DNA of 64,000 nucleotides from Blasia pusilla (GCA_050084515.1 CM114271.1:16678001-16742000); one strand, 5' to 3'. Positions 13,171-63,108 are shown, counted from the stretch's first letter. A program made the numbers and translations. Notes: generated from the letters alone by a model not told the origin.

Positions 13171-13181
13171 TTCGTTTGTGA

Positions 13182-24244: not shown

Positions 24245-24525
24245 CAAGGTTTCATGTGGACAAAGTCTACGTCCGTCCTATAGAAGGACCTATTTAGGTG
24301 GGCCCCATCTCCCCCAAACTTGCCTATGTAATCCGCATTTTCTTGTTTCTTCCTCCCCCACCTCCACTCCCTCCCCTCTTATTACCCCGTCCGCCCTTGC
24401 CTTGCCTTCCACCATGAACTATAAGTGTGGGCCCAATATTTTGCAATCTTTGTCGGTGGACATGTCCAAACTTTTCTGTCCATATCCGTCTTAGTGACCA
24501 ACTTGTCCATTTTTGTGCAACCATA
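24245..24525 (+). mobile_element. hAT-type MITE copy 1
   Basis: TIR CAAGGTTTCA...TGCAACCATA; degenerate 8-bp TSD GCTATATC/GTTACATC; shares internal sequence with copies 2-4. Confidence 0.8.
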
Positions 24526-31028: not shown

Positions 31029-31489
31029 CTTCGCGGAAACAACAATCCTGCTCCGATTCCACGCCTCACAGGAAATCTACCAACCCCCGGATTCGAAATC
31101 GCACTTTCCAAGGACGCCTCTATCAACCAATCGACCTGCGACTGAAGCAGCCCGTCTCCAAATGAAGGTTTGAATCCGAGTCCCGCCAACTCCGTTAAGA
31201 CGATGCGAATCGGATTCAAGTTTCTCCCCTACAGCAACAGCAGCAGCAGCAGCAGCTTCCCGAGCTAGAAGGAGTGCGCTAGGGGAGATCGAAGAGAGAA
31301 CAAGATGGTAGATTGATTGAGATGAATTACGGGTTAACAAGGAAGAATGTAAACTGCATCGCGAGATAAAGGCGTCATGTAGAGGTGAAGAAATGGGAGT
31401 TTGATGTCCAACACTAACTAGTCCGCGGAGTTTCTTGAGGACGAGTTGGCGTCGGTGGCAGACGGATATAGAAATCCACGCGCCGCCAC

Positions 31490-36900: not shown

Positions 36901-38716
36901 GCGTGCGTCCCTGAGGATTGTATTTAGTCCCCCAAGGAGGGCAAATGTCTAGTGAAAATTTCTCCTAGCACTCAAGCGGATGCAGTCCTCTTGAGATATC
37001 AGGGACATAGGGGAGTTTCTAAAATCAACGTATGGCGCCTTAACACCATAATGTTTTTGCGATGAAACAAAAGCATTCCCAAGGAAAGGGGGAGATACTC
37101 TTCCCCTTTCCTTGGGTCAATTTTTTTGTTGTTCTTGTAGTGGCCATGGTTTGCTTTACTACCCTTGACTTGTGTGCATAGATGTGATGGGAGCAAACTT
37201 GGAGTCGCCTCATATTGGACCCGCCTAAGGGCCGTCTTGCAGAGCTATGATGGGAGTCAAATCCTGAGTCGCCTCAACCGTTGGAAGTCGGACCGAGAAC
37301 CTATTGGAGATCCAAGCGACAATGGAGACCTTCGAAAGCAAGAAGAGACTCAATCCGAAGGTAACTTGGGAGTCGTTGGAGGATGCCGGGAGTTTCAAAG
37401 AAATTGTTGCAACTCAGCTAGATTGCACCACTTATAGACGTGCTAGTAAATCTTGCGATACACAATGCATCTTAGCTGGAAAGTATAAGTCTATTCTATT
37501 GGCATGCGTTGTATTACTGTATCAATTATGTTGAACACATCATGTAGAACTTACCAACATACAATAGCAAAGAGCTTCTACATCTGTGAGTTGAAGGAAG
37601 CTAAATAAAGCTGTCACATTACGTGTCACTGCCTGCTACTGTAAATAAAGGTTTGAAATCACGCATCATTTCTTGCTACTTTACAGAATGTAAAATTGAA
37701 GTGCTTATTTGGAGATCTAAACCTCGCATTCAACTCCTTCGGCAACAAAATGCATGCAATAAATATTGTGCAACCCTCAAAGGTGGAAAACTCTAGAAGC
37801 CGCCGAAAACCCTCAGAACGACCCCCCCAGAAAGAACTAAGACGTTCATCAACGGACCTCCTTGAAGAGATCCTTCAGCAACACATCCAAATCTTTTCCA
37901 TGAACGGTAGTCGTTTAAAACAAAGTATCGGTTTTTCGATACCAAATTTGAAATGCAATGCAGCCCAGGATGCAAAGCCTTAACCTACGTCAAGAGAACA
38001 AAGCAAAGCAACAGACCACTAACGCATGGTAGAATATTATTAACAAAAACTACCAGGTATCATAACGTGGAGTGGTCCTCTAGGAGAAGGCAATCTCCCG
38101 TAATAGTATAGATATATACTATTTTTGGAAATATGAGTTTATTTTTTATTTTTTATTCCATGCATGATATATGATATACCTATTATATATGGCACCGGTA
38201 TTTTTATTAGTGGTTTGAATGTACAAAACATAAGAGCTACTATAGATCATCTCTACTTTAGTCCACCAACATAGAAGCAACAAATGCCTTAGATGTTGAG
38301 ATGATAAGAGGCAAATGAATGAGTGATTAAGGAGTAAAGCCTTAATTATCACTAGTATTCAACCCATGCTTTCCACCATATCAATAATATGTTGAAAAAA
38401 AATCTAATGTTATGAAAAATTTAATTACTACTATTGTTAAGCACGTGCTATGGAATAGATCAATTTATTTTTTTAAATGTGTGTCGTGAACTTGTTATCC
38501 CAATGTCAAAGTTAATAAATAAAAAAACTCGTCTCCTTTAATGATATAAAAGAAAAGTAATTTGAATTTTTGAACATTTGTGAACATCTTGTATAAGGTC
38601 CGCACACAACATGTTCATACACTTAAAATGGAATCTAGTTATGCTACCAATATGTAATTTCGTTTGGAATGCTATAATAAGTTAGAAGGATGTGCCTTTT
38701 TTGCCATTATTCTCTC

Positions 38717-38990
38717 CAAGGTTGCATGTAGACAAAGTGCGTACTATGGAAGGACTTGTCCATATAGACCCCACCTTCATTCCCTCCACTTGCCTTCATG
38801 TTGCATACTTTCCTATTTCTGCCTCCCTCCACTTCCTTCCCCCTTTGTGCCCCACTAGCCCTTGCCTTACCTTCCATCATAACCTATAAGTGTGGGCCCC
38901 ATATTTTGCAATCCATATTTGTGGACATCTCCAAACTTGTGTGTTCATGTGTGTCATAAAGACCGACTTGTCCACTTTTGTGCAACCATG
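38717..38990 (+). mobile_element. hAT-type MITE copy 2
   Basis: TIR CAAGGTTGCA...TGCAACCATG; perfect 8-bp TSD ATTCTCTC. Confidence 0.9.
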
Positions 38991-41900
38991 ATTCTCTCTA
39001 GGTCGAGAACATGGGTTGTTGCATTTGTGAATCAGAGTAAATTTTAGGTGATAATCATGTCAATGTTTCCTTCTTGTCACTCTTGAAAGAAATTGGTGAT
39101 CTTGAGATCATAGTGGAACACTAGATCCCCTAGAGATTTCTTATGGTGCTATGATATTATCTTGTAATTATAACTAGTTGACACATATCATTCAAGAATT
39201 GCCTTGATATTCTCGTGTAATCATAACTAGTTGAGACATAATCATACATTTCTTGTGGTGCCATGATATTCTCGTGTAATCATATCAGTGCTTGCGTAAT
39301 CCATGGTCCCTCTTTTAGAAACTCTGAACGATTTTTTTACACAAAAATAGCCCACTAATGTCAAGATGTATTTTTTAAGTAGACATGTGTTAGAGTGAGG
39401 CAAAACTCCCAAAGAAATCAATCCTCCTAAATAGTTATCCGTTGAAACTTTTACAATGTGGATTTTTCTTCTATGGACCTTGTGGTCTGGAGACCTATAT
39501 TGCTAATGTGGACCAATTCTTGTTGAGACATCATTGGTAGCAACGACCACCGTAGAGGTAAATTGGAGCTAGCCTTCATTTTACTTTCAAACAACCAATC
39601 AAAAGGAAAAACTTTTCAGGTCAAGGGGAGGTATTTTATCATTTATTTGGATACACTATATGAGGAAAAAAAAACACTCCAAGACAACCATTTGAAATAC
39701 TAGAAGAAATCTTGGTGATAGAAGAAATACTTTTGTAAATAGAAGTAGACAATTGCAATTTTCCCATAAATAATAACCCTCTTCCCTTCTCCCTTTCTAA
39801 TATTATAATGTAAATTTCAATGTGTGCATGAGATTCGAATAGCGAGTGGGCAAGCATGACTTCCTTCTAATTCCACCATGGGATTAACGGCCAAAAAGCC
39901 CACATGGGACTGAATTGACTAGTGGCAAGAATGCATGTAGAGACAAATTCCACATGGAGGTTAGATCTAGATGGATGATACCACAATCCCCCACCTTTCA
40001 TTGGAGGTCGTTCTTAACCATACATATCAATATTTCACATGGACTTTCATTAAGGATCCAAGAAAACTTCTTGTATCTAGAGCTTGCTTTGGATAACGTT
40101 ATGCGACAATGGCTGCTCCTTCAAAACTACATCCATGGAGATTTTTCCCTAATATTCATAATAACATGGGATAAATTTTGAAGTTCTTTGAGTTCTTTGA
40201 CACAAAGTACAATCGTCCAAGTATATATGTTCAAAAGGAGGTGGAAGTATTTATACAATCTTCCACTAGAGGCATATCATATTGCAATGAAGATCTCTCT
40301 CGCAATTCTCCGAGGGAATGGCTAAGGTGGTGACGGCATATCTTATAAAAGCATTTATATTATTAAGACAATAAGACTCTTCCTTCTAAGATCGTTCACA
40401 CTTACTAGAAGAAATGAGGACTTCTGAAATAAAATAAAAGAAGGTTTAATGAGTTTTCTACACATCCAGCCCAGTGCATCAATGTAGTACCTATTAACCG
40501 CCATCCAAGGTCATGCTACCTCTACAGCAGTAAAGTTGTATTGAGATAGATACAATGGAGACATTTGGCTGTCTCCACTCACAAATTTCAGGCTCCAAAA
40601 TGCTGAGGGAGTGTGGGCTGTGTGGGTGTCCATCTCTGTACAGTGATTAACTCAATGCCAACCTCCAATAAGTGATTGCTATGCCACTTTGGAGGGCACA
40701 AGAAAAAGCAACTTTCTTTAAAGTCCTTGCAGTATCATCTTAAGTTAACCTTCAACTGAAAGGTCCACTTGAGAAGAGAACTGAACTACTAGTGATATAA
40801 CCGAGTTGGTCCATTAGTGATGAGGGAATTCTTTATACTTGGTGACTCCTTTTTCTTCACTGGGGCTCTGTTTCCACTCTGGGGACTGATATTATGTCCC
40901 TTTGGACTCAAAAAAGAGCTCCATATCTACCTCAAAGTTGGCTCATAGGTTGGCTTATAGGTTCTACATTTACCCCAAAGATCCCTGCCCGGTTGCACAC
41001 GTTGCAATCCACATTCAAGCATAGTGCAGAGGTTTTGGTTCAAGCAGATATGGAGGACTCAATTGCGTCGACATGTCAGGCAATCGACTGATGGTACAGC
41101 AATTCAGAGAGGATGTCCTGTGAATAAAATTGGAGTAGGGATTTTAGTTTTCAGGTTCCGTAAGAGAAGTGGCAGGGGTAGAAACAGGGAAGAAACACAA
41201 TTTTCAGAGATGCATGAGAACCCTTTACAAATGCTAGGTCAACATCCATCTCTCAACCTCAGAGAATCACGAGGGCTGATTTGACACACCCTGCTACAAT
41301 GATATCATAGGAAAGGAGACAGGAAAAGTGATTTGTTTTACGACCTCTTTGCTCAGCCACATTTTGAAGTGAAAAAAGCTGACAGGGACCACCAAGTTGA
41401 TGTTATTTGAGAAGTAATCCTATTCATGCTTTCCAAGCTAGTTATAAACATCCAAGGGTAAACAATGAAACTGCAGTAACAGCAACAAAGGAGTCCATCC
41501 AGCTAGTTATTGAAGATGATAAGATTGTCACACGCTTCCTATCTCAACAGGAAGACAGCTGCACCTAAGAGTAAAAATTTGGAAGTTGCATGATGTTGAT
41601 TCTTCCAACCTTGCATTGTCAATTTTCAGGCGTCCTTGGGATACCTAGAGATTTCAGAATGACCATCATTTGTAGGCCACTCTTCCTTCTCACAAGGCTA
41701 CAGACACATCTTCCATATACAATGCTCATGCTGCTTGGACATTTACAATGGCATTTCAAAAGGAGAAGCAAGTTGGGTTCTTTGACATTAAAAGCTTTGG
41801 AGGGTAGTCTATGAACATTCCTTATGAGTTCATCACACATGTGAAGTACTGACATGGAACAGGCTACTGATGGCATTCTGTTATAACTAAATAAGCTCCA

Positions 41901-42336: not shown

Positions 42337-43212
42337 TCAGGCTCTTCTCCAGACAGTTTCGGGCTTGTCAAGCTTCATGGCCGTGTATCTCGCTGCAGTG
42401 AACAAGAAATCACTCAGACGGTTCAAATACTGAGCTACCGATTGCTCCACCAAATGCTCTGCCACCAACGCAACCACTTTCCTCTCTGCACGCCTGCACA
42501 CTGATCTCGCCGTGTGAAGAGCAGCTGCAGGCAATCCGCCAGACGGAAGTATAAAGCTCGTCAGGGGAGGAAGTTCCTCGTCCATCTTGTCGATCCACCT
42601 CTCCAACGATACCACCCATTCGGGGTCGAACCTGACTTTAGCAACCTTCTTCGAGGAGAAGCTATTCAGAGGCGTGGCTACGGCCGATCCAACATCAAGA
42701 AGCCTCGACTGAATCTCCTCGATCTGCTCCAGCGTGGAAGCCAGCTGGGCTTGTAGGCAGTACTCGTGTGCCAAACCTAGAGCACTATTCAGCTCATCCA
42801 CGTCTCCAAGTGCTTCAAACGTTGCATCGTCCTTTCTTCGTCTCTGCCCATCGTACAGAGACGACTGGCCCTTGTCTCCAGTCCTGGTATAGATCTTCAA
42901 CGCTCCGCTTCCGTCTGATGAGAAGCATCGGGGGAGAATAGGAAGGGATTGAGCAGATAAGTAGACAGCGGATGCCGAAGTTCTCGAGGATGGTAAACCC
43001 AGGAAGCATGGTCTATACCGACCTGATGGAGAAGCTATGAACGCAAACGAGCGCGCAGAAGGCCCTGAAGCTAGTCGTGAGTCCGTGCAGGAGCCTGATA
43101 TCAATGCGCCTTCGCTGCTGCACTGTCCGAGCCATGGCCAAAAATTGACCAATGTGCGAAAATTGCGTGCCTGTTCATGAAGAGACCGCACACAATTCCT
43201 CGCTGAAGGCAT
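42337..43212 (-). CDS. MMAB: PduO-type ATP:cob(I)alamin adenosyltransferase (MMAB/CblB homologue) with probable organellar transit peptide
   Basis: KIYTRTGDKG, GDVDELNS, IQSRLLDVG, LPPLTSFILPSG, LHTARSVCRRAER and YLNRLSDFLF in an intact single-exon 291-aa ORF with a ~105-aa Ser/Arg-rich N-terminal extension. Confidence 0.95.
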   Translation of the reverse strand: MPSARNCVRSLHEQARNFRTLVNFWPWLGQCSSEGALISGSCTDSRLASGPSARSFAFIASPSGRYRPCFLGLPSSRTSASAVYLSAQSLPILPRCFSSDGSGALKIYTRTGDKGQSSLYDGQRRRKDDATFEALGDVDELNSALGLAHEYCLQAQLASTLEQIEEIQSRLLDVGSAVATPLNSFSSKKVAKVRFDPEWVVSLERWIDKMDEELPPLTSFILPSGGLPAAALHTARSVCRRAERKVVALVAEHLVEQSVAQYLNRLSDFLFTAARYTAMKLDKPETVWRRA

Positions 43213-44420
43213 GTTCAGAACACCTTTTCCGAGACAAAGAAATCAACGCTGCTCTTCCCACTGACCAACTAATTCAACCAGCGACTCGCTGAGGCTCGCC
43301 CATATATCACTAAGAAACCAAGCTTCATTATTTCACAGCTGCCACTCTCGCCGAACCTCCGGCCTCCGCTTCAATTCTTTTCTGTCAAGGCGCAGTGCCA
43401 GACGCCCATGATACTCCCATCGCCTCCTCCTGCCGGTTCGATTTAATAAGACTCCCCATGCCGCCTGTGAGGTCCAAGGGTTTTGGGTCCTTTCACAACC
43501 GCCCCCATCGGTACTTGCATCATATCACCATATACTCATTCTATCATCATCATATTATCAAGGGCGTTACCCCCAACCGGCGCACAGGACCGGCATCCTT
43601 TGTAAAGCAAGCCGGCAGAAATCGAGAATTTCCGATAGGAGCAGTCATGCATTGGGAGGTTTGCCGACCTGAAAAAGTAAAACGTCGGTTTTCTGCCGAG
43701 ACCCCTTCACCACAACCGGTAGAACACCGACACGTCGTGGAAAAGAATCGGCAGTTTTACCGGGGCACCACTAGGATTGTCAGCACTAGGTATGTTGGGG
43801 GGAACACCGGGAAACCACCGGACTCATAAGGACCCGGTCCCATGCGGCCGGCTTGCAGTCGGGGTCGCCACGATCTCCTTCTCGTAGGTTGGAAATAGGT
43901 GGTAATACGGTCGCAATCTTTTCGCCTTGTGTTTTGACTGCGCGAAGAAGGTTCGGGTCTCATGAATGCTATCTGTCGGATCAAGAATGATCCAGAACCC
44001 TCGGGCCAGGTCTTGGCGACCTCGGCCGCATGGAACCGAGTCCTAAGTGGCGTGCCGAAGAAATCTCCATACATCTGTGACCTAGATCTGTGGCCTGTCA
44101 AATTGTGACCGACTATGGTAGGATAGGGAAGGGTCGGGTCACTTGATCACCAAATGCAACTTAGCCACGTTGCCGTAGGAGGCGGCATGGCGGGCTCGAA
44201 TGCTCGAGCGAGTCGAGCCTCAGCCCTCGGGGCGATAGGGACTCTTTGGGAGTCGGGGTCTCAAGGAGTAGGCTTATTTCACTCGTTTTGACTCAAGACT
44301 CACTCAGGAATTGATACTCAGGATTTGGATTGCGGAGTCGGGACTCTAGTGTATTCTCAATTTCCAGAGGGGGAGAAGCAAATCTCACAGCTTCGTGCTT
44401 GGGTCTCGCCATCGCTAGGA

Positions 44421-44534
44421 TGTCATGACCATACCGATTATGTCGTAGAGTATAGTGTGCTAGTAAAGGCCATACCTTATGTAGGGCCGTAGTGTCTAGG
44501 TAGGGATGCGGTTTCATACATGGGGTTGGGGGTT
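44421..44534 (+). repeat. Repeat A1 (5' terminus of copy B)
   Basis: Matches 55540-55653 ungapped (about 5 mismatches in 114 bp), then diverges completely. Confidence 0.93.
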
Positions 44535-45803
44535 TCTAATGTGGAGAGCTTGGAGTGCGGAAGCTCTGTTGAAGTTCATCCAGATCGGGTGAGAGGTTCC
44601 TGTTGCTACTTGTATTATGATCTCATGTGAAGCTATCTGCTTGAGTGTGTGGAGCGTTGCGGATTTCTGCGTGCATGAATCTGGGCGGAAGCGCTGTCGG
44701 ATTTGCGATTCTGGAGGTGTATGGACATCAAGTTTGTCTGATTTTTAGCTCGGAGTACAGAACTCGGTTGTAGCTGATTTTTTGTGGAGAGATAGCTATG
44801 GTGTTCAATTGAATTCTGGTCGAAATAGATTCAATTTTGGTTGAGGATTTGTGGAGTAATTGCTGATCGAAATTTCACGGACTAGCTCAAGGTCTGGCTG
44901 TGGTGGACAGCAGATCGGAGGGGCTGGTTGGTTGGTGATTCGTCCGTTGTTGGAGACGCCTATCCCGTTGGGGGCGCCCTGGTTGGGCCTCTCTCCATAG
45001 CGAAGCATGGCAAAGCATGGCGAATGGGGCGATAGGGGCAAGTCTCAAGCATTTCTCGGCTTCGAGGCAACTCATGGTAGCTTGAGGCGAGTGGGTGTGA
45101 GAGGCAAAGTAAGGAGCAAGGAGCAAGCAAGCAAGCTTGCTTGCTTGGGCATGAGGCAGTTTTTGCATGATTTGTGAGTTGAGTGTTGCATAACTGGTCA
45201 CCCATCTTTGGGCTATTCTGCCTGGAAGAGGCTTAACTACTGAGATCTTAACTATGCCAGTGTACACACTGGTGTAGCTCATTTGGTGTTGTTCGGAGAT
45301 GTGTTAGGCGCTTTATGCATCTCAGGTTTTTGGTTGATGGACCTCTAGCACATAGTATGATGTAGCCTCTCCATGCAGGTGATATTTTCAGGTGCTGCGA
45401 GTGCAACTAGCACATCATCGACCAGCGGCAGAGTAGCTATTGCGTTAGAATTGTATGGTGGGTTCTGTGGATTCAGGGGGCGCCACGTTTGGTGGATTGT
45501 GTTACCTTGATTTCCATTTGCGATTGGAGGGTTGTTGTTGGACTTCTTGTGTTTGGATCCCCTCCATCGTTGCTTCTTGCTTGCGCGCCCATTATTATGG
45601 TTGACGCTGATTTCCACAGTAGTGTTACTCCTGTGTGCTACCTATAGTGAGGTTGGAGTGATGACCAGAAGACCGTGGGAGGCTTTTTGTGGTGATGACA
45701 GGTTAGGTTGCCTACACCCATAGCTAGTAGAGCTAGAATAGTATAGCGACATCGGCGTCACTTGGTTACTTAGTGGTGGTAATTTGGTGGTGGTGCGGCA
45801 TCG

Positions 45804-48650
45804 GTGTTGGTCATCACGGAGCTGTCTGGTGGTCTGGTTGGGGACCATGGTGCGGACAGTGGTGGTTTTACACGGAGTGGATTGAGGTATCGGCTACCTT
45901 TTCCACTTCCGACGGTTGATGAAGAGAAGGACGTGGGTGTTCCAAACACCGAGTCTTCTACGTTGTTATCGAGTGTTGCAGCTCCATTGATTTGGGACAT
46001 GGATGGGATATATGGGGTCATGAAGGGCCCAAGACAATACTCGGGTGCAGTGGGCACCATTGAGTTGGAGGACTTCATTCAAGAGTTTGATACGTGGTGT
46101 GATATGCAGATGTTGCAGAACGCCACGTTGTTTACACCCTTCTTGGCTTGGAAGGGGTTGTTTCAACACTTGGAGGGACCACCCATGGATGATTACCATG
46201 AGTTTAGGAAGGACCATGTTGCTGAGATTAAGGCGTGGAGACAATATTGGTCTCCATGCTATGTGTCAGTCACCCATGGTGATATTGGTAGTAGTGCTCC
46301 TACTATGCCAGCCAGCCCGACGTTGAGTGGTACGAGTACGAGCCGGAGTGGGGGTACTAGTGGAGGTACCCATGGAAGTACCACTGGGGATACTATTGGG
46401 GATACTAGTGCCCCACCATCGTTCACCCCGATTGCAGAGTTCTTCAAGAGGTTGAAGAAGAACTATCAGGGAGTGAAGACAAAGAAGTTGAGGAGTCTCC
46501 ACGAATTTGAGCGAAAGACTGGTGAGAGTCTTCGTGAGGCATACACTCGTATACGACGCTTGATTTCAGTAACCTAGGGTGTGATTGAGGCTCAGGCAGT
46601 CCAATTTTGGTATGGGATCTTGTACAGAGAGTTGCGTTGCAGGGTACGTTGTCGTGTCGAGAGCCTTTCTTCGAGCAAGGGCGGGCCTTCTAGCTGCGGT
46701 AGATGGGGTCGATGCAAGGTGAACTCTCTAAGAAGTTCTCCTTTTTCAATACAAAATTATGATGTACACTCTCCATTCTTTCACGACAGGTATCACAAAT
46801 GGAAATGCCGAGGCGATCACTTCTTCGTAACATCGGACCCCAAAATTCCTAACTATAAAATCCCTATAAACTATTTTACGCTTGTACACGAGGAAGATAG
46901 CACAACTAGTGTTAAACCCTACTTGAGCAGGCCTATTGACATCCATGGGTCGCTATATAAAGACATACAAAGTACAATCCCATGTCCTTCCATATGTGAC
47001 GATAGGAAGAATCACCGGAGTTGGAGATTGCATGACCTGGTTCATGAACGTCTCCCCAAAGTGATAAACTAAATATCGAGTGAACGAGTGTCTATCTACA
47101 AAGAATACCTTGACATGGTATGGATTGAGGAAAGGAAAGTCGGGCACAACTCGTGCTCCACCCCTATCCATGCTTGATAGACATTCTTTTCTCTCCTCAA
47201 GAATGGATTTTGGCAGAATTATTCTCCCAAGAGGGGTAATCCACTCTCATTGGGGAAGTAACAAGCCAAAACATTCACTATTTTAGTATGACTAAACCCC
47301 TCTAAGGTGACAAACCTCTCATCTCCATACACACACACACCACACTCTAAAAACCTCTCGAAGAATAGACCATGATCAAGTTACTCTCCCAAGAGGGGTG
47401 ATCCACTCTCATTGGAAGAGCAAGCAATCCCAAACCATACACTCAAGAGAGACACGAGAGACTCAAGATGTGGAATAGAAGGTGATGAATTCTTGAAGGT
47501 CCCTCCTCTTTATATACTCACAAGGGATCCACAAGAGTACGAAATAGAGCTTATCTTAACTTGTGCCACATGGCTTCCTCTCAAGGCTTAGCCAATCACA
47601 TTTTGACACAAGTAGATTTCCTCTTATCTCTTCCAAAATATCATCTTTTACCCACTTGATATTTTCCAAATTACCCCAACTAACCTAGCCACCAACCAAG
47701 ACTACTTTTGCTTTTCATTAAAGCAACTACTTTGCTTTTATAAATTCATCTTTTATTTATTACCTCCTTTTCTAAAGTTGGGCCCGCATAAAAGAGGCAT
47801 CATAAAGAGGTTTAAACATAAGAATTTCCTTTTTCTAAGTCAATTTACTTAATACTAATGAAACTCTATCTAACACTTAATGACGAAGGAATTTACATAT
47901 TGGTTGATTTTACTATACGACAACGTGATGCTACTCTTATGAGTGATGATTCACCCACATTGACCCATGTGTTTGCTCTGTATGAGAAGATTGAGCTTAA
48001 CATGGTCGAGGAGAGAGTGGTGACATCCGCATTCAGTAGGGATACAACTACTACTTCTCGTGTTCAAGAGTCCACCTCAGAGTCTCGTAGTGGTGGTGGT
48101 GGTAGTAGTAGTGGGAGTCGTGGGGGGTACACACGACCTCAATCAGGTCCTAGAGGGACACTTGCGCAGAGACCATTGCCTTCATTTGCTGCCCCGCAGC
48201 AAGGACAATCATATTGGACATGAGGAGGTGATCATGTTAGGAGGTTTTGTCTCCAAGAGGATGAGAGACGGAATTTGGAGGATGGGCCTCTGTCGGCCCC
48301 AACTCAGTGTGATCATTGTGGGAGACTAGGTCATCCTCGAGAGCCTTGCTTTGATCTTCATCCAGAGTTGAGATCAGGCCGCGGCCGTGGAGTAGCTCCG
48401 AGAGGCCGAGGTGGTAGAGGTGGTAGGGGTGGTAGAGGTGGACTTGTGGTTGGAGAGCCTACAGTGTCTACCCCTACCACTACGACAGAGTTAGCTATGG
48501 CTACCAGGATTGAGCAGTTGGAGCAGAAGTTGGCTACTATGGTTAGTATCCAGCATAGAGCAGGTTCGGGAGCAAGGGCTTCCACCTCTTATGGAGGGGA
48601 TGATCTCTCTTATATGGCGAGTGCAAAGACGAGGTTGAGGCATCGCCTGG
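45804..48650 (+). pseudogene. Copy B gag (interrupted by the 46650-47922 insertion)
   Basis: GTIELEDFIQEFDTWCD, WKGLFQHLEGPPMDDYHEF, ESLREAYTRIRRLI, CDHCGRLGHPREPC and an RGG-rich tract. Confidence 0.8.
46650..47922. mobile_element. 1273-bp non-coding insertion (solo LTR or non-autonomous element), TGTCGT...ACGACA, 4-bp TSD ACGT
   Basis: ACGT at 46646-46649 and 47923-47926. Removing the insert restores the gag frame RVR-DATLMSDDSPTL. Confidence 0.9.
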
Positions 48651-49778
48651 GCGATTTAGAGGAGCCACTCGAGCGTCAGAGCCACGTGGTGCTACTGTGG
48701 AGTTGGACCCACAGAGGGGTGAGGCTGGGAGGCACGCTAGGCTTTCCCAGTCATTCTTGTTGTCTGAGGTACTTAGGACTCCATCCATGGTTCCTACGCA
48801 GCCTATTGAGCCTATAGTCGGGACTAAGGCATCTACATTACGTGTAGTAGACACGGATGCAGCATCCAGTGCAGTATTGTGGATGGCAACTTCAGTGTTG
48901 GGATCCCCATTGTTTTCGGCCACGGAGCTCATGGCTTTAGGAGTTGACTTAGCTCCTGTATTTCAGCTAGCAGCCATGTTGTGTGAACGTGGGGATGTTA
49001 CTGCTACACGTGCTGGTCTATACACATGTCGTGTAGGACTCACCAATCGGAATATCCCACTCCGGTTGTCCAACATACATACACCATGTGTAAGCCTTTC
49101 ACGATCAATGGTTGGCCGGGCTGGTAATGCATCCATCTTCGCCGCTGCTGCCTGTCAAGTAGCACTGGTACTCAATGCTACACCTCACATTGAGGGTTGC
49201 TCCACCGCAACACCCTCATCCACTTCAGCACTGCTAGACGGTTGGGAGTACTTGCAGTGGTCACATCGGCCGAGTTGTATGATGTACTAGTTGGAGGAGC
49301 AATATTGTACCCGATGGGTTTTCAGATGGACTACTGGACTTAAACAGTGTCTTATAGATCTAGTAGGCAGTTTGGGGATGGACGTATGAGCCAGGTTCCT
49401 ATGAGATTTATTTATGGGGCTCAACCAGGAGGGTCTTCCCCAACGGTGTTAGCATCTGTGGCTGGTTTTAGTGGAGTAGTCACTTGGCCAGGAGACTTTT
49501 TGGAGGGTAATCTTTCTGCTATGGATTCTCCTGTGCATGAGGAGGTAGAGGAGGTCCCTAGTTTTGCAGCAGTGGCATCCTCTTCGTTGGATGTGCCACT
49601 TTGGAGTTCATGCGGTGCACTACGGCAAGAGGCTGATCGCCTAGTGCAGGAGGCTTGGTGTGAGGCTGTTACACCTCACGAGGAAGAGGAGGCCCCACAA
49701 CGGACTCCTACTTCTGGTCCAGTTGGGTTATCCCCTTTGGATACTACACCCATTGTATGGCAGTATCCGCCGGAGGGC

Positions 49779-50720
49779 ATTTGTGTGTTAGATCTCTTTG
49801 GTGGGATTAGCACCGGTTTGGTTTGGCTGATGTTGCGGCACCGGTATTCTGTCTTGCGGAGATACGTGTATGTGGAGCGAGATGAGACAGCCCAAAGAGT
49901 CTCATCCCGACATATCGGTCAGTTGATGCGGAGATATCCTGAGTTGTTGCCGCCATCATGTATTCGTGAGTACCAGCGTGCTTTGCCGTCACACATTGCA
50001 TTGTTGGGGGCGCAAGAGCTTGAGAGTGTTGGTCCTGTGGATTTGGTGATTGCCGAATGGCCATGTGAGGGTCATACACGTGCTGGTCATGGTGAGGGAT
50101 TACACGACCCTAGATCTCGATTATTTTGGGAGATGTTACGGGTCTTACGACATCTTCAGGTTTATCACGCACGTGCTACAACTTACACTCTGGAGAATAT
50201 TGTTGGGTGACACTCGGACCCAAATGATGGCGAGTGTTCATGAGGTGCGGTCTTCGATTGGACCAGCAGTGTTGTTGGATGCAGCGCGAGTTGGCTCGCG
50301 TGCACATCGTCCACGCTTGTGGTGGACAAACTTGTTGCCTAGGGAGGTTCTACGTCGAGCATATGATGTAGTGCAGCGGGATCCTTGCCTCACAGTGGAT
50401 AGTATCTTGGATACTGGGTGACTTTCTCAGGTGGTGAGGGTTATTGATCGGTCATCCATGGCAGTGGTGAACCGTGTGGGCTAGCCTAGGATGGCACTAC
50501 CCACATTTGTGAGTTTTCCCTCGTCACATGCCTACAGGGAAGGTGGTCCCGGGCTTGTATGGGATTCTCATGTGCGACAGTTGGTGGAGCCTAACGCTGA
50601 TGAGAGAGAGCGTGCGATGGGATTTGCTACTGGTGTGACAGCGGTTGCTTCCATTTTTTAGGCTTCACGACATCATGTGTTGGGTCAAGCCATGGACCTG
50701 AATTTTTTGACCTGGATTTT
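49779..50720 (+). pseudogene. Copy B C5 cytosine DNA methyltransferase domain
   Basis: ICVLDLFGG, YVYVERD, DLVIAEWPCEG, RSRLFWE, TLENI, RAHRPRLWWTNL, ERERAMGF, LGQAMD. Confidence 0.9.
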
Positions 50721-51099
50721 GAGTCTTGGGATGGCTGAGCAGCGTCGACTTCGGACTATGTCTATGGGTCTTCCATCCCTTGTGATGAGCTCGATGGCTA
50801 CTGGGACGGTAGAGACATCGATTGGGGGCGAGGAGAATAGTATTTTGCATCCTTGGAGTAAATAGGATGTAATGGTTGGGCATGTGGAGTTGGTTGCTCA
50901 TGCTGATGGAGGAGTTATTTGCTCAGATGATGGTGTAACCAAGGTTGTACCATCTTGTGAGAGGGTTGCCTAGCAGCCAATGGCGTCGTCCTCTCCCTCT
51001 ATTGTGCCAGTGGAGGAGATTTGGGAGCCATTACTTGGGCCCAAGCTTAGGGGAGGTGAGAAACGACGCTTGACACAATTCCTACGTGCTTATAGGATT

Positions 51100-53150
51100 T
51101 GTCTTGCCTTTAGCATGAAGGAGTTGGGTGCTTTGGTAAGACCCGGTATACGGATTGATTTGGCTAGTGATTCGCCAATCTTCCGTCGTCCCTACCGATA
51201 TAGTGATATGGAGAGGGACCTGATTCAGAGTAGGACGTTGGACCTTTTGGAGGCTGGATTAGTGGAGTTGTCACATGGAGAGTATGCATCAGCCACTATC
51301 ATGCCTACTAAAAAGGATGTGCATGGCAACTACACGGATAGGCGGATGTGTGGAGATTACCGTCTTATCAATCGATAGACCAAAGCCGATAGGTATGCCA
51401 TGCCTACACCTGAGGAGATCTTTGATGTGGTGGGACAGGCAAAGATTTTTAGTACTTTGGATCTTCGGGCAGGATACCATCAGTTGCCAATCCGAGAGAG
51501 TGACAAGGCCAAGACAACATTTTGGGGTGTCAACTCTCATGGCAAGGATTGTTTGTACCAGTGGAAATTCTTACCCTTTGGGTTGAAGAATGCACCTGCC
51601 GAGTTTCAGAGAGTGATGGACAGGATCCTAGCAGGGTTTGATTTTTTTCGATGTTACATTGATGATATCTTGGTGTTCAGTAACACGGTGGAGGAGCATC
51701 AGATACATTTGCAAATTGTGTTTGAGCGGTTGAAAGCTCATGGTCTACGTTTGCGTCCAGGAAAGTGTAAGTTCTTCCATGAGGATGTTGAGTACTTGGG
51801 TCATGTGATCTATCTAGGTGGTTTGGGAGTTCACCAAGCAAAGGTGGAGGCTATTGCACTTATTCCTCGTTCGATAGATGTGAGTAGAGTTCGGGCATTC
51901 ATGGGATTAGCAAACTACTATCAGAGGTATGTGAAGGGATTTAGTGTTATGGAAAAGCCTTTGAACCAATTGTTGAAATCAGATCGGGAGTGGCACTGGG
52001 GAGATGATCAGGAGAGAGCTTTTGTGGAGCTCAAGGCCCAGTTGGTGATTGCGCCTATCTTGAGGAAACTATCAGAGGGCGCCCATTTCAGTTACACACT
52101 GATTGGAGTAGGTTGGGACTTGGAGTGGTGTTGACACAACATGATGATGAGCACATGGAGTTTATGGTGGCCTATGCAAGTCGTTCGAATATTGCAGCGG
52201 AGTCGTGCTACAGTTCATATGAGGGAGAGTGCTAGACAGTAGTGTGGGTTGTGGCACACTTTAGATGTTACTTGTTTGGCATACAATTTACCCTTGTTAC
52301 TGATCACCAACCGCTCAAGTGGTTGATGGAGTCTGACAAGCTTCAGGAACCTAAAACGGCACTTGCGCGCCTAGCGATCCCAATTGTTCAACGGATCTCA
52401 TGCGAGTTCCAAACCGAGACCCAAGTAATTGAGTCGCGGGGTGAAATCCAAGAGGGACGTCTAAAATCACCTCCGTAGACTTGGTTCAGGTTTTCCAACC
52501 CAACCCCAAACTCTCGATCCGTTCCATGCCCTTGAGCCGTCCCATGGCGCCCAAAGTGGGGTTCAAGTTCCAAGCACTCTCGGAGACCTTCCCCCTTAAT
52601 AGTACTTTTGGGGTTCTCCAATAACACCCCCCCTTTTGGCCCTCAACCCGACTCTACTTACAGTCGTATCTGAGTTGTTTCTCAACCGTTGCGTACGCGT
52701 TTGCAGAGATCCTTAGTGCGTTTGAACTCACTTTCCATAAGCCTTCCAACGCACCCTTGTTTAATCCAAACGCATCTAGGCGCTAAAAGTTATGGTTATA
52801 AATACATTTGGAAACTCTCGAACGCTAGTGGCGTTCCAAATCCGGATTCCTTCCTTTGGCAACCCACTTTCTAGTCTTATTCCGCGTTTGGTCCAGGTTT
52901 CTCGGTCGCGACCACAACATCTCAAACACGAAGCCTCGCTTGCGTCTCGTATCTTGTCTCTTCTTCGAGACTACTCCAACGCGCAAACCATCTTAGCGTG
53001 AGCCCGCTAATGTTTTGATGTTCCGCTTTGGCACTCGTTTGGTCATGAGGATCGCGACACTTATCTTATAGGAGTATGACTTCCAGGTGGTACATAGACC
53101 TGGAGTTGCCAACCTTGATGCTGATGGGTTGAGTAGGAACCCATGTACTA
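51100..53150 (+). pseudogene. Copy B reverse transcriptase / RNase H
   Basis: RMCGDYR, LDLRAGYHQ, LPFGLKNAPAEFQR, CYIDDILVFS, LHTDW, TDHQPLKWL; interrupted at 52344-53059. Confidence 0.95.
52344..53059. mobile_element. Truncated LTR-like insertion in RNase H ending in CGCGACA
   Basis: Host reads MESDKL then resumes at LIL*EYDF. About 8 codons (TGKLARWA) and the insert's left end are missing, so no TSD is visible. Confidence 0.65.
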
Positions 53151-53349
53151 GCCAAGAGGATGCAAGTGGGGCTAGATGGCATGGCGAGGTTGATGAGGAG
53201 ATGGTGCCAGGTTGGCATGCATCCGCCTTTTTATGTTGGTTAAGGATGGACTCTAGTATGGAGGACCACATGACATCTTACTCTAGTCAGAGGGTAGATG
53301 GCCAGCCTTCAGATCCTAAGGTTGGAGATGGTTGTACGGATCAACGTGA

Positions 53350-55258
53350 TATTCATGATCATGCGTTGGTGTTGGAGTTCCTACGGACCAGTAGGGTGCC
53401 AAGCATAGTGAGTGCCAAGGAGCGAGACCATGTTCTTCAACGTGCTAAGAGGTATCGATTGGAGGGAACACATATTCTCCGTATGTGGGAGGTGTGAGAA
53501 AAAAAAAAGTGACAAAATCACTGAAATCTTTACAAAACTTAGAGATACAAAGTGGCCTAGTCCGTCCGTGCTCTCACAGAAGAGCTTCGATGGAACCTGA
53601 ACTGGGAGATAACTCGACATACGAGAATGCGCTACCGCTGCGGCTCCCGACTATTTGACTACTCGGGAAAACTAGGGTTTTTATACCTATTTTTCTTTGT
53701 TTCTATTAATAGAAAAATTTTGCCCTATATATTTTGCCCTAGGTTTATCTAACCCTATATTGCATCAGTGTGCCTCGCACCCTGATGCAATATAGGGTTA
53801 GATAAACCTAGTAACGCTACTCCTAAAACCACCTACGTCATATTACTATGACTCCTTCGACGTTTAAGTCGGAACCATCAATCTAGGCTTCTCCTCATAC
53901 AAGGGGGCCGATCAGATTAATGGTGCTTAGAGAAGTGGATGTTGAGAATCCAACAGGAGGATGGTAGAGTACGAGTAGTGCCGCATTTGGCTCAGAGAGA
54001 GCACATTGTGCGACATGCCCATGAGGAGTTGGGACATTTTGGGGTAAAGCGTACGTATAGCTTACTCCTGGGTCAGTATTGGTGGCGTGGCATGCATACT
54101 CAGGTGTAGCAGTTGGTGTCATGTTGTATGGTTTGTGACTGGGTGAGGGCATCATTCAATGCCCCTACACTACAATTACACCCCTTGCCTATTATGGGAT
54201 TGGGTTACCGTTGGAGTGTGGACTTTGCGGGACCGTTACCGTTGACTATATGACATCATCGATATGTGTTGGTGATGGTGGAGCACTTCTCCAAGTGGAT
54301 TGAGTTGGTGGCATTACCTGATAAGGCAAGTGAGGGAACGGCGTATGCATTTCTTGATAGAGTGCTTAGTCATTTTGGTGCACCAGCTGAAGTGCTGACC
54401 GACCAGGGTACAGAGTTTCGGGGTGAGTTTCAGGTCTTGTGTGACAAGGCGTTGATTGATCATCGGACCACGTCTCGAGATCATCCAGAGGCGGATGGTT
54501 TGGCTGAGCGTGCGGTTCAGATGGTGAAGAGGGCATTGCGCAAGTATGGCCTACAGAAGGGGCATCTTGGAGACTGGGATATTCAATTACCATGGTTAGC
54601 CATGGGGTATAGGTTCAATCGCCAAGCATCCTTGGCTTCCTTCTCACCTTATTTTCTGTTATACGGCCGAGATCCAGACTTACCAGCACCAATTCGTCAG
54701 GAGTCTAATGTGGTGGTGAACCTTGATGACCCAGAGATGTGGATGAGAGTGTGTATTCAGCGGGCAGAGCTCTTTCGGAGAGTTATGCCAACAGCCTTTG
54801 AGAATCTTGCCATTGCTCAACACAGGGATACGCTGTGGTATGCAACCATTCGGGGTGGAGGTTATTGACCATCGATTTGTAGGTTCCATGTGGGGGACTA
54901 TGTCTATTTGCAACAGATTGCACCGACAACGTTGGATGTGACGGCAGGCCGCACTATTTTACGAGTGCGAGAGGTGTTAGCTTCTGGAGTTCTCATGTCG
55001 GAGGGTCGTGATGGAGTTGTTTGGAAGGACCATGTGCGTAATTGTGCGCCATGTCATCTTCCAAATGTGGATGGTACTGTTGACCCAAGCTTAGCCATGA
55101 TACGTGCTAGCTTGAGGTGCATGTTGTGTGGGTCTACTGGTAACGCAGCCCGTATGTTGGTGTGTGATCGGTATTCTAGGGGTTGGCACATGATGTGTTT
55201 GACCCCACATATGGATGTTGTTCCTATTGGAAGGTGGGTTTGTCCTCGATGTACTTAG
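53350..55258 (+). pseudogene. Copy B integrase plus C-terminal PHD finger (55118-55255)
   Basis: HAHEELGHFG, WSVDFAGP, VLTDQG, GLAER; CMLCGSTGNAARMLVCDRYSRGWHMMCLTPHMDVVPIGRWVCPRC. Confidence 0.93.
53493..53955. mobile_element. 463-bp solo LTR (TG...CA) with 5-bp TSD GGAGG
   Basis: GGAGG at 53488-53492 and 53956-53960. Removal restores LRMWEDGRVRVVP. Confidence 0.9.
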
Positions 55259-55430
55259 GAGAGGTAGATGACTTGATCTTTGCATGATATGGATTACAGA
55301 TGTGCAACTAACGATGGGGCAACCTAGCATCCGGCCTTCTGATTCGTGCACCCACGAAGGTGTATAGCATGTAGTAGATGTATAGGGCTACCGGGGAGTT
55401 AGAGGGACCTAACCGCCGGTTAGGGAGGCG

Positions 55431-56013
55431 AGTTGTGGTACACTTGTGGTTGTGTATGCTCTCGTCTATGTTATGTATGTATGTGAGTATGGTATGTTAG
55501 CGATGTATGTTGTATGACGATGTGGATTTTCACGACAGTTGTCATGACCATACGGATTATGTCGTAGAGTATAGTGTGCTAGTAGAGGCCATACCTTATG
55601 TAGGGCCATAGTGTCTAGGTAGGGATGCGGTTTCATACATAGGGTTTGGGGTTACTCCGTTGAGGGTGACTTTTCCAGTAGGGCCCGCCCTTAGGTTGGA
55701 GGATATAGTGTGGAGTGTACTCAAAGAACAGTTAGTTCTTTGAGTTGAGCCTGTTGCGTTGGGAGTTAGCCTTGGTAGTAAGTAGAGCTCTTGGCTATGG
55801 TGGTTTCCGCAAGCTTCGACCTGGATTCTCTCATCGTGGAGTGGGTTTGGCTCGATTGTATGTGATTCTATACATGTTTTATGACAGTAGGTCTTTCACG
55901 GATTTCAGTTGTGGTACACTTGTGTTTGTGTATGCTCTCGTCTATGTTATGTATGTATATGAGTATGGTATGTCAATGATGTATGTTGTATGACGATGTG
56001 GATTTGCACGACA
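55431..56013 (+). repeat. 3' split-repeat module of copy B: B1 55431-55537, GT, A2 55540-55653, unique spacer 55654-55906, B2 55907-56013
   Basis: B1 and B2 are both 107 bp and near-identical; A2 matches A1. Confidence 0.93.
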
Positions 56014-57229
56014 AGGGAGTCGTGGCTCACTCAAAGTGCTATTCACTTAGTAACACTTGCTTGATTTCAGTTCCCAACTACAAAGTTCGCATTTGCCATA
56101 GAATCGTGCGATCCGCTTGCTGCCACATAGTCCAGACTTGGGCTTTGTGGCTATGAAGATTCGTGGAAGTGCCTTATAGATTATTGTCGTTGCTCTCTCC
56201 TTGCCACGCTGTCATTGCAAAGTGTGGAGTTGTGGATATTGCCACATAGCTCTGGAGTGATGTCTCTTTAGACTTTAGCTTGTGTCTTCGTGGAAGTGTC
56301 TCTCTCTCATTGTAGTTGAGATTCGAATCATGTGTCTTTTTGTCTAGTGAAGTCAGTATCCTGGTGTGCCTCATTGTGTGTTGAGTAAGGCTACCCATGA
56401 GCTTGCACGCATGGAATAGCAATAACATGTCGATCTCCCTTTGTGACTACAATAAATGTCACCCTCCCCTCTAGCGACTTTCTTGGGCCCTTATTGGAGG
56501 TTTCTTGATATTCTTGGATTAAATTAGTAATTAACTTACTATGCAAGTTGGGAGGACTTGTGTGTACGAGTCGTGCTCTTGGAGCCTTTGGATTTAGACA
56601 AGGATATATCCCCAAGAAAAGGTTTGAAAGACTCATCTTTTTAAAATTGAGTCTTCTAAACATAAGCAAGTTTAGGATGTTATCCATGGTGTATTTAATA
56701 TATATTCCTTCAATAAACATGCGGGTTTGGTTCGATTGTTATCCAATAATTCCGAGAGCAGTGTATTTCCCATTGATTTTCATTGTATTGCCTCTTAATG
56801 TGATGGTGAATATTACCATGTAATATATTATGTCTATGGGCACTTGGTTGAAGGTGTAAGGAGGGTAATGGGAGAGGCAGAGAATTCTTAGTCATAGGTA
56901 GATTAAGATAGTTAGTTATCTTGATTATGGGAATGTGGAAATTTCTTGGTGTGGATATATTCACATGTGGCACGGACTTAAGTCTGCATATAATTCCATC
57001 TATCAATATATGTGATTTCGTGGGAAAAAGCGTCATCCTAAACTTATAAGATATTAAGGATATTTTTTCATCCTTATAGTATTTTTTTTATCCCTCGTCA
57101 AATGGTACAAAATTCAAAAAAATTACGTTTTATTATAGAATTTGTATATTTGAATATGTGTTATGATTAAATTTAGAACACCATGTCAAATTATCATGTT
57201 TCAAATAAAATTATGTCGTGTACGTTGAG

Positions 57230-57567
57230 CATGGTTGCACAAAAATGGACAAATCCATCCCTAAGACATACATGGACGCACAAGTTCGGGTATGTCCACA
57301 AGCATGAATTGCAAGAGGAGGGGCCCATACTTATAGTTCATGACGGAAGGTAAGGCAAGGGCGAGTGGAGCAATAAGGGGGGAGGAAGTGGGGGTTGCTA
57401 GAGGAAAAAACATGAAAGTATGGAACACATAAGAGAGTGGGGGGATTGATAAAGAAGAGGAAAATGGGGCCCACATGGACCACTCCTTCCATAAAACGGA
57501 CGTGAGTCCACACACATGGATATATCCGCGGACACGGACTTCGTCCATGACTCCATATGTAACCTTG
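57230..57567 (-). mobile_element. hAT-type MITE copy 3
   Basis: CATGGTTGCA...TGTAACCTTG; TSD ACGTTGAG/ACGTTGGG. Confidence 0.85.
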
Positions 57568-61792: not shown

Positions 61793-62094
61793 GAAGGTTA
61801 CATGTGGACAAAGGCCATGCGTGTGGACTCAAGTCTGTCCTACGGAAGGACTTGTCCATGTGGGGCCCACCTCCCCTTGTTTCTCATTCTACCCACTTGC
61901 CTGTGTGTTCCACACTTTCTTGTTTCATCCTCCCTCCACCTCCCATTATATTGCCCCGCTCATCCTTCCCTTCCCTTCCACCATAAACTATAAGTGTGGG
62001 CCCCATCTCTTGCAATCCATGTCCGTGGACATATCCAAACTTGTCCCTCCATGTCCATCTTAGGGACGGATTTGTTCTTTTTTGTGCAACCATG
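61793..62094 (+). mobile_element. hAT-type MITE copy 4
   Basis: GAAGGTTACA...TGCAACCATG; perfect 8-bp TSD AAGATGAG. Confidence 0.9.
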
Positions 62095-63108
62095 AAGATG
62101 AGCTCCCATCATAAGTAGCTAAGTCTGTGATGCCCACGCCATTAGACACATGGTAAGTTGAGTCATGATTGTGGGTCCAAGGAGGAAAGACCTTGATGTG
62201 ATCCACCAAAGTCAAAACCTAGAGTAGCTAGTCACGAGACTAAAAAGGGTGACAGAACAAGTCGTGAGAGTAACATCAGGCGAGGTGTGGACGTGTTTTG
62301 TGATTGTCCTTAGGTGAGAAAAGGGTGTAACTACTTGCGAGGATAAAATCAATGCAAGCAAGGTTTGAGACCTTGGAGCCAAGCACCAAATCAAGGGCGA
62401 AAAGAAAGGAACATATGAGTAGTCAAGATGGTCGAGACGCCATGCTACTAGTCATGAAACGCAAAGGACAGCAAGACAACCATGAGACGAGGGGAAGTTA
62501 AGATGGGCCGTGAGACACATGAAACGCGGGTCCAACCTCCAAGATGCATTTGGAGAACCAAGAGTTGCATAATGTGCAAGAAGCCTTCGCCAAGCCATCT
62601 TGATGGATAACTAGTCTATTATCAGTCTACGGATCACAAACCACATTTGGGTTGAGGATCAAAATCAACTGAGGTCTGAGGGGAACAATAGAGAAGGTGA
62701 AGTTTCCCGGAGAACCCCAAGAGTACCCAAGGGATGGAAAGGGGGCACTCTCATTCCCTGCCTACACAAGTCCTTGAACTAGGAAGTAACCTTGTGTACT
62801 CTAGATTGTTGGTGACCGATTAGGCTAGATGAAGTAGAAGTCGGACTCTACGATGACTCCAAATGAGCATCATTCAATGTATATCCCTCTAGGCATTTCC
62901 ATGGGTGATCTGTATACGCAAGTAACATCTTCCTTATAGATCACCAACAACTTGTCCACAAGGTACTAACTCTCTATCAACTATACACATGGTCCTCTTA
63001 CAAGATCAGCTACTATCGAACAACCAACTAACCCTCAAACCCTATGGCCCCAAATAGATCCACACAAAGGACGAGAGGGTTAACCTCTAGGTGACTAGAG
63101 AAGTGGAG

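Follow-up and report, generated by a model that had tools for sequence, protein, structure and literature searches.

Retrotransposons of the Ty3/Gypsy type (Metaviridae) are bounded by two complete long terminal repeats (LTRs), whereas the PAT, Ngaro and TOC elements of the DIRS order carry split direct repeats in the arrangement A1...B1-A2-B2, as defined in PMC4157794. Features of both groups meet in KnitGypsy-Dnmt3 from the alga Klebsormidium nitens, which combines a DIRS repeat structure with a Gypsy domain composition according to the legend of Fig. 4c in de Mendoza et al. 2018 (PMC5890265). The main text of that article does not give a primer-binding site (PBS), a polypurine tract (PPT), a target-site duplication (TSD) or a mechanism for the element. 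A 2026 preprint (10.64898/2026.05.21.726589) mentions "streptophytes (Gypsy-DNMT3)" in passing, and the name KnitGypsy was found in no further paper of the literature searched. Here we describe an element of this kind in a stretch of 64,000 nt from the bryophyte Blasia pusilla (GCA_050084515.1 CM114271.1:16678001-16742000, in the following referred to as the window), in which one copy, copy B, occupies positions 44421-56013 and two further copies, A and C, are present.

The B. pusilla element resembles KnitGypsy-Dnmt3 in its Gypsy domains, in a DNMT3-type methyltransferase inside the polyprotein, in repeats of the order A-coding-B-A-B and in having a streptophyte host; the host of KnitGypsy-Dnmt3 is, however, the alga K. 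nitens, and the two elements were compared by description. An initial annotation of the window had taken the combination of Gypsy-type enzymes and split repeats to be undescribed. This does not stand in view of the published KnitGypsy-Dnmt3 (PMC5890265, legend of Fig. 4c): the split-repeat Gypsy-DNMT3 kind is already known, and what is new is the host group, a bryophyte, and the high abundance. The literature searched, with subscription journals, Repbase and the supplements of PMC5890265 lying outside the search, yielded no description of PBS, PPT, TSD or replication for split-repeat Gypsy-DNMT elements, nor of bryophyte members. With Ty3/Gypsy elements the B. pusilla element has in common the type of reverse transcriptase (RT) and RNase H (RH), the order protease (PR)-RT-RH-integrase (IN), an HHCC-DDE integrase and, as sequence signatures, a PBS, a PPT and a short TSD; it departs from them in its split repeats and in a DNMT domain between PR and RT. 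The A1...B1-A2-B2 repeats it shares with PAT, Ngaro and TOC elements as these are defined in PMC4157794, from which it differs by a DDE integrase, 4-bp TSDs, an RT closest to that of Ty3 and the position of its repeat edges at a PPT and a putative self-priming PBS.

The retrotransposon family to which copy B belongs as a mutated member is highly repeated and transcribed in its streptophyte host. In two DNA runs, the flanks have a summed contig depth of 1.6-3.9 and the interval 44417-56092 one of thousands (in run X2, 2181-7585 inside the element versus 2.5-3.9 in the flanks), an increase of about thousand-fold in the host; summed contig depth does not equal copy number and was used solely as a sign that the family is highly repeated. 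In two RNA-seq runs, reads of a single direction cover 44417-56092 and end at the element edges. As LTR-finding programs seek two matching terminal repeats, the family has likely been missed, split or misdated in bryophyte annotations. The usual dating of insertions by LTR pairs is unsuitable here, and the pairs A1/A2 and B1/B2 should be used instead.

Repeat layout and integration ends

Copy B lies on the plus strand and starts with A1 (44421-44537), which opens with TGTCATGACC; it ends with B1 (55431-55537, or 55434-55537 as a TG...CA unit), the dinucleotide GT (55538-55539), A2 (from 55540) and B2 (55907-56013, or 55910-56013 as a TG...CA unit), with GT preceding B2 as it precedes B1. A repeat search of the window gave 95% identity over 117 nt between A1 and the first part of A2 (55540-55656) and 94% identity over 107 nt between B1 and B2. 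Copy C (15945-18021, minus strand) is a 3' fragment of 2 kb that belongs to the same family, shares 93.8% identity with copy B across 2058 bp (18001->15945, window self-comparison) and ends PPT-GT-B1-GT-A2-GT-B2. Copy A (206-8203, minus strand) is a diverged family member with remnants of both open reading frames (ORF1 and ORF2), approximately 73% identical to copy B in the coding parts, and ends with B1 (973-846), AC, A2 and B2 (336-206); no A1 was detected for it. The repeat positions proposed for copy B in the initial annotation and the recurrence of the module in copies C and A were thereby confirmed, while the 253-bp spacer that it had placed between A2 and B2 has to be given up. In the alignment of 3' modules, the supposed spacer makes up the 3' two-thirds of A, which in copy C and related loci is a single unit of about 335-368 bp reaching from TGTCATGACC to ...TTTCA, so that A2 of copy B is a full A repeat extending over 55540-55907. 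Because the spacer belongs to A and full A measures about 367 bp, A1 of copy B, which comprises just the initial 117 bp, is truncated; the split repeats themselves stand, and A1 of copy B is a deletion derivative.

In order to see how general the layout is, we mapped A and B units onto 80 metagenome-contig loci with an ORF1 alignment; the structural counts are all based on degenerate copies in contigs of this kind. A forms a unit of about 335-340 bp in these loci, and a spacer is absent. A full-length A precedes ORF1 in 27 loci, and in none of the 27 does a B occur in the 150 bp to the left or right of that A; at least 150 bp of upstream sequence is present in 26 of them. A complete A-B LTR at the 5' end of intact copies, which according to the initial annotation would speak against its own proposal, was thus looked for and found in 0/27. 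Downstream of ORF1, B occurs in 24 loci: five read B-NN-A-NN-B (L019, L022, L050, L056, L072), two have a B-A that is partial or ended by the contig (L001, L046), one B is located at a contig end (L068), and the remaining 16 show a single B. Two complete identical LTRs at the ends were not encountered; the 5' end is A alone (27/27) and the 3' end is either B-A-B or B. As had been supposed, the A1...B1-A2-B2 layout characterizes the lineage instead of stemming from a one-off rearrangement.

Integrated copies begin with TGTCATGACC (the A-start) and finish with ...CACGACA (the B-end), and the two ends form an inverted repeat TGTCRTG. Perfect 4-bp TSDs were present in seven of nine evaluable copies (AAGG in L019, AATC in L022, TGTT in L005, ACTA in L010, TGTG in L028, ATTA in L037 and TACA in L062), whereas three of four positions match in L013 and in copy B of the window; the 5' end of L050 is damaged. 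The flanks of copy B, whose own ends are TG...CA, are AGGA on the left (44417-44420, read directly) and AGGG on the right (56014-56017), a putative TSD that agrees with the perfect 4-bp duplications of the relatives. The integration ends are the A-start and the B-end, and the TG...CA termini and 4-bp TSD first noted for copy B hold for the family. The same two ends meet inside the element: at the B1|A2 junction, A-start and B-end abut with 2 nt between them in a near-palindrome, which reads CACGACA-GT-TGTCATG in copy B and is a perfect 16-nt palindrome, CATGACA-GC-TGTCATG, in L019. The dinucleotide varies (GT, GC, AT, AC), the variants differing by transitions alone. The canonical integrated form is TSD-A1(~340-367 bp)-PBS-coding-PPT-GT-B1(~105-113 bp)-NN-A2-GT-B2-TSD.

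Two metagenome loci bear on the relationship between single-B and B-A-B ends. L028 (13370-19142, single B) and L056 (7606-13417, B-A-B) share flank and TSD, and we take them to be two states of a single insertion. Divergence amounts to 0.34% in the far flank and, about 25 times higher, to 8.4% in the element (569 transitions, 67 transversions); this predominance of transitions fits methylation-driven decay. By parsimony, single-B copies would most simply be deletions between B1 and B2, analogous to the formation of solo LTRs. The single B of L028 compared with B1 and B2 is a mosaic of transition differences and no simple chimera. In L012 (5531-5819) and L023 (15892-16180), the element is reduced to the 3' half of A plus 9 nt of the PBS, joined via 7 nt directly to B; this minimal derivative sits in the same flank in both contigs.

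Encoded enzymes and putative priming sites

Pfam searches with ten ORFs of copy B returned RVT_1, rve and a borderline DNA_methylase; a search with seven proteins added a PHD finger at the integrase C-terminus, and relatives yielded zf-CCHC, DNA_methylase, RVT_1, RT_RNaseH_2/RT_RNaseH, Integrase_H2C2 and rve. Together with tblastn mapping, this gives the domain order Gag-PR-DNMT-RT-RH-IN-PHD, with the DNMT domain between PR and RT. ORF1 of intact relatives encodes Gag with CCHC knuckles, protease and a DNMT3-like cytosine methyltransferase, and ORF2 encodes an RT of the Ty3/Gypsy type, RNase H, an HHCC-DDE integrase and a PHD finger. The two ORFs account for the whole coding length. The best PDB matches of the RT-RH part are Ty3 Gag-Pol (7q5b, 3.1e-86) and Ty3 RT (4ol8, 3.8e-75), with RTs of caulimoviruses and retroviruses ranking lower. 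For the methylase, DNMT3A ranks first (5e-11), followed by DNMT3B and DNMT3C and then by plant DRM and bacterial enzymes; the motifs DLFGG, PC and ENV are present in translations of copy A (methylase at 5547-4894, minus strand) and relatives, and the nearest clusters in an Atlas search were streptophyte and phage methylases. While the Ty3/Gypsy-type enzymes including the HHCC-DDE integrase had been recognized correctly from the start, the DNMT3-like and PHD domains had been overlooked. A chromo domain was not matched; the integrase C-terminus bears the PHD finger instead. Neither was a tyrosine recombinase found, the Pfam scan of the ten copy B ORFs and seven proteins returning no Phage_integrase match.

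The closest named relatives of the DNMT region comprise many proteins of Marchantia polymorpha (65-82% identity), a protein of Sphagnum fallax (57%) and, distantly, one of Cymbomonas (34%); further ones stem from Sphagnum troendelagicum and S. jensenii. No K. nitens protein is among the 45 matches to this region. The Marchantia and Sphagnum relatives are annotated merely as hypothetical proteins. Intact ORF1 proteins of about 1330 aa with Gag, protease and DNMT are present in public data, and a search of the 80 loci for intact ORF2 returned one ORF of at least 700 aa with RT motifs (L011, ending at the contig edge). In this distant relative (L011, 321-6809), Gag-PR, DNMT and RT-IN lie in one frame with single stop codons between them (after 3191 and 4508), which may reflect stop-codon readthrough or decay. 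That an abundant, transcribed plant element carries both a DNMT3 domain and a PHD finger matters for the interplay of transposons and host methylation.

The left edge of B is marked by a polypurine tract, AGGGGGGCGA, followed by GT and TGTGG..., and this holds for copies B and C as well as for copy A with its different B sequence. In copy B, the tract reads AGGGAGGCGA (55422-55431, plus strand) and is located immediately 5' of GT-B1. A polypurine tract immediately precedes B1 in 18 of 22 B1 or B-only rows among those listed; in the four exceptions (L013, L038, L064, L075) internal deletions reach B. The same G/GT stands before B1 and B2 in five of seven modules, and the other two differ by G>A. 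The right edge of A is just as distinctive. It is directly followed by CTCAAAGAAC(TAT...), the reverse complement of a segment within A whose start lies 23-34 nt 3' of the TATA(A)A box in A, at the predicted 5' end of the RNA. When the 16 nt after A1 were compared with A positions 160-170, exact complementarity of at least 9 nt was found in 18 of 27 loci and extended to 16 nt in L019 and L052, whereas 0/162 control 16-mers from further downstream reached 9 nt. In the minimum-energy fold of the predicted 5' leader of L052, the single locus folded, 14 of the 16 terminal bases pair with the PBS site. In A2 of copy B, a TATA-like box occupies 55702-55708 and a hairpin, CTCAAAGAAC-AGTTA-GTTCTTTGAG, lies at 55720-55744.

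Judged by these sequence signatures, the stretch adjoining A represents a putative PBS of the self-priming Tf1 type, and the tract before B1 a putative PPT. Moss Tcn1 elements are likewise predicted to self-prime (Neumann et al., PMC6317226). The likeness to Tf1 and sushi-Tcn1 elements consists in a PBS that directly follows the 5' repeat and is complementary to the element's own predicted RNA start, the 5' end being predicted here from the TATA box; unlike the B. pusilla element with its split repeats, PHD finger and DNMT, those elements have two complete LTRs and a chromodomain.

Copy B itself lacks the priming site. No tRNA-type PBS was seen by eye after its A1, the canonical sequence after A has no match in the window at up to three mismatches, and a sensitive comparison of its 5' region with three relatives found no alignable untranslated region except at the Gag start. 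Because the canonical continuation of A is not in the window, we conclude that the truncation of A1 in copy B went along with loss of the PBS. A loose DNA-contig end at 55907 continues with CTCAAAGAACTAGAG..., and to judge from this continuation the PBS-type sequence that comes after full A in the metagenome relatives also comes after it in other host copies. The absence of a PBS reported in the initial annotation is thus correct for copy B and does not extend to its relatives, which have the putative self-priming PBS after A1 as well as a conserved PPT before B1.

As the PBS follows A1 and the PPT precedes B1, reverse transcription is predicted to produce a cDNA with a B.A LTR and with B-start and A-end as its termini. 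A permuted LTR (B.A) therefore describes the element better than a "non-LTR" strategy, the term used at first.

Formation of the split repeats

The predicted cDNA termini (B-start and A-end) differ from the integration ends (A-start and B-end), and for this reason we propose that cDNA ends are joined and that integrase then opens the palindromic B|A junction, which would yield the split repeats. We put the probability of this reading at roughly 0.55. The cDNA would have the form [GT-B-NN-A]-PBS-int-PPT-[GT-B-NN-A]. In a first step, its ends would be joined head to tail, either in a two-LTR circle or by an equivalent end-joining, and this join would be kept as the A2-GT-B2 junction. The latter does match a blunt joining of cDNA termini, because the PBS abuts CA with no extra base and the other terminus is GT-B-start. 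In a second step, integrase would open the B|A palindrome of the left LTR, in which two attachment (att) sites face each other. The product, A-int-B.A.B, would be a circular permutation of B.A-int-B.A, equivalent to opening a two-LTR circle inside U3, and the att sites would lie within U3. A-int-B.A.B has the same total content as the cDNA, with one B shifted from the left end to the right end. A possible side benefit would be that GT-rich B is located downstream of A2 alone, which could limit polyadenylation to the 3' copy.

Retroviral integrases have been reported to cut palindromic LTR-LTR junctions (PMC1180852, PMC1905944). The two-LTR circle junctions treated in these articles resemble the B|A junction in being palindromic, in joining two ends with 2 bp between them and in being cut by a DDE enzyme; cleavage of the retroviral junction is a side reaction, whereas in the present case each element has a built-in copy of the junction, the use of which we infer. 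The placement of priming sites at the repeat edges and of integration ends elsewhere provides a concrete, testable model for split repeats in combination with a DDE integrase, and it may help with the unsolved cycle of PAT and Ngaro elements. A stricter version, which we regard as less likely than not, holds that head-to-tail joined cDNA (a two-LTR circle, or ends joined after integration) is the obligatory integration substrate, that the att sites are situated inside the LTR defined by reverse transcription (U3) and that each copy is a circular permutation. Insertion sequences (IS) of the IS3/IS30 type form circle junctions of abutted ends. If the stricter version is true, a DDE-integrase retrotransposon would act like an IS circle junction and would have arrived convergently at the split direct repeats of tyrosine-recombinase elements.

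Several points weigh against joining and opening at B|A. A two-LTR circle has two identical B|A junctions, and opening of the other one gives A.B.A-int-B, which was seen at 0/27 5' ends; a bias towards the left junction is needed, possibly because the left LTR becomes double-stranded first. The self-primer of Tf1 is reportedly not removed, and if it were retained here in the same way, PBS bases would be expected in the ligated junction; A2-GT-B2 has none. The single-B ends of 16 of the 24 loci could have arisen directly when both att sites of linear cDNA were cut, and conversion between single-B and B.A.B forms is apparent solely in the L028/L056 pair, where B is not a clean single-crossover chimera. 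The loci are furthermore related by descent, so that the counts reflect conservation and not independent events, and all B.A.B copies examined contain stop codons. Finally, the sole reported cluster of RNA starts (55701) falls on a 5-nt indel by which copy B differs from its relatives, and it may be a clipping artefact; it was rejected as a transcription start and is unusable for placing RNA ends. Several template-switch models in which A-GT-B is formed in the course of reverse transcription were also examined on paper, and none of them fits both priming sites. DNA-contig joints between A1 and A2 and between B1 and B2 were set aside, as short contigs cannot span the repeats.

The best surviving alternative, which we still consider unlikely, is a regeneration of ends as in DIRS, PAT and Ngaro elements: a transcript would run from inside A1 to inside B2, B1-NN-A2 would template the missing outer parts of A1 and B2, integrase would use the restored ends, and the PBS- and PPT-like sequences would be incidental. 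The layout is indeed the A1-B1-A2-B2 scheme defined for PAT and Ngaro (PMC4157794), the internal complementary region of DIRS-1 is experimentally required (PMC7192593), and the internal junction of the B. pusilla element holds exactly the two integration ends in abutted form. This explanation offers, however, no reason why the left edge of B should be a polypurine tract in two diverged families, nor why the right edge of A should coincide with 9-16 nt complementary to the predicted start of the RNA. The ORFs scanned gave no match to a tyrosine recombinase family. TSDs are present; DIRS-type elements are not known to form them. RNA depth, moreover, drops in the last bin (37-53 versus 111-166), which fits slightly better with an RNA end near the end of A2 than with an RNA that continues across B2.

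It is also conceivable, and in our estimation quite improbable, that A-int-B is the primary product. Integrase would then nick the internal att sites of linear B.A-int-B.A cDNA, the flanking B0 and A2 would be lost, and B.A.B would be rarer or secondary; as A-int-B is without a 3' R, B.A.B would at the same time be the sole propagating form. No circle is needed on this account, the 16/24 single-B ends would be explained directly, and perfect 4-bp TSDs are present in five of six single-B copies with both ends. On the other hand, the shared flank and TSD of L028 and L056 imply a secondary origin for at least one single-B copy, B.A.B is found at all three 3' ends in the window, and a separate route would still be needed for making B2. 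There is next to no probability left for copy B being an ordinary LTR retrotransposon with a rearranged 474-bp A-B LTR, A1 being a truncated 5' LTR and B1 a tandem-LTR remnant: heavy damage and the truncated A1 of copy B would agree with it, but it is already contradicted by the data, as B lies beside a full-length 5' A in 0/27 relatives, B1 directly follows the PPT in copies A, B and C and in 18/22 of the B1 or B-only rows listed, and TSDs flank A-start and B-end.

Damage to copy B and neighboring features

Mapping of relatives by tblastn, together with read joints, revealed three private insertions, one small inversion, frameshifts and stop codons in copy B. Apart from the insertions at 52344-53059 and 53488-53955, to which no strand is assigned, all features in the following account are on the plus strand unless stated otherwise. 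A1 is followed by a 5' untranslated region (44538-45851), which is repeated in the host genome and transcribed according to depth and RNA reads and is devoid of long ORFs. The ORF1 remnant begins with the N-terminal part of Gag (45852-46645, corresponding to residues 14-260 of the relative P0012 in tblastn) and is interrupted by a private nested insertion of another repeat of 1277 bp (46646-47922, minus strand), which is skipped in other copies (joint 46645->47923); in the DNA runs this repeat reaches a high depth, and RNA reads covering it are opposite in direction to those of the host element. ORF1 continues with the C-terminal part of Gag including CCHC knuckles and a linker (47923-49014; ORFs, tblastn, zf-CCHC in the relative L011). 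A small inversion has put ORF1 residues 611-692, the start of the protease, on the wrong strand (48993-49238, minus strand; tblastn, opposite-strand joint 49012/49228). The C-terminal part of the protease and the DNMT3-like cytosine methyltransferase (about 49785-50720) occupy 49221-50967 and are frameshifted (Pfam DNA_methylase, best PDB match DNMT3A, tblastn).

The ORF2 remnant comprises the reverse transcriptase and the initial part of RNase H (50974-52343; RVT_1 E 3.9e-31, best PDB match Ty3, tblastn), a private 716-bp insertion or replacement within RNase H (52344-53059; joint 52343->53060 in 44 and 47 RNA reads) and the end of RNase H with a linker (53060-53487, tblastn). A further private insertion of 468 bp (53488-53955) contains a 73-bp palindrome (53739-53811), and the corresponding joints 53487->53956 occur in DNA contigs and RNA reads. 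The integrase with its HHCC zinc domain and DDE core follows at 53939-54868 (rve E 1.9e-12, Integrase_H2C2 in relatives, tblastn), and the PHD finger of its C-terminus at 55118-55255 (Pfam PHD E 2.5e-8).

Several further fragments surround copies A and C. Beyond B2 of copy A (1-205, minus strand), a 33-nt partial duplicate of the B-end, a second 3' part of A and another B start at the window edge are arranged as a tandem or nested extension of the module. On the minus strand, the coding region of copy A has directly upstream of it a satellite array (10950-13100) of approximately 345-bp units that are 74-88% identical. A third B-like unit of the copy A family stands alone, with no adjoining A; two telomere repeats of the plant type, (TTTAGGG)2, and a minisatellite of 20 bp precede it (13181-13311, minus strand; 13313-13326, minus strand; 13340-13450). 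The same family is represented by an internally deleted fragment ending in the 3' part of A and B (14052-15216, plus strand), and a separate Gag fragment (15326-15863, plus strand) is located between it and the end of copy C.

The host gene MMAB (42337-43242, minus strand) encodes an intronless corrinoid adenosyltransferase (PF01923) with 70% identity to a Riccia fluitans protein and 59% to one from K. nitens, and is closest to MMAB of a liverwort. A run of long ORFs rich in alanine, glycine and lysine extends over 27847-31076 (minus strand), and a helicase-like ORF with the P-loop motif GPGGTRKT is found at 33363-33923 (minus strand). A dispersed repeat of about 280 bp is present in four copies on both strands that are 73-79% identical (24243-24524, 38715-38991, 57230-57519 and 61815-62095).

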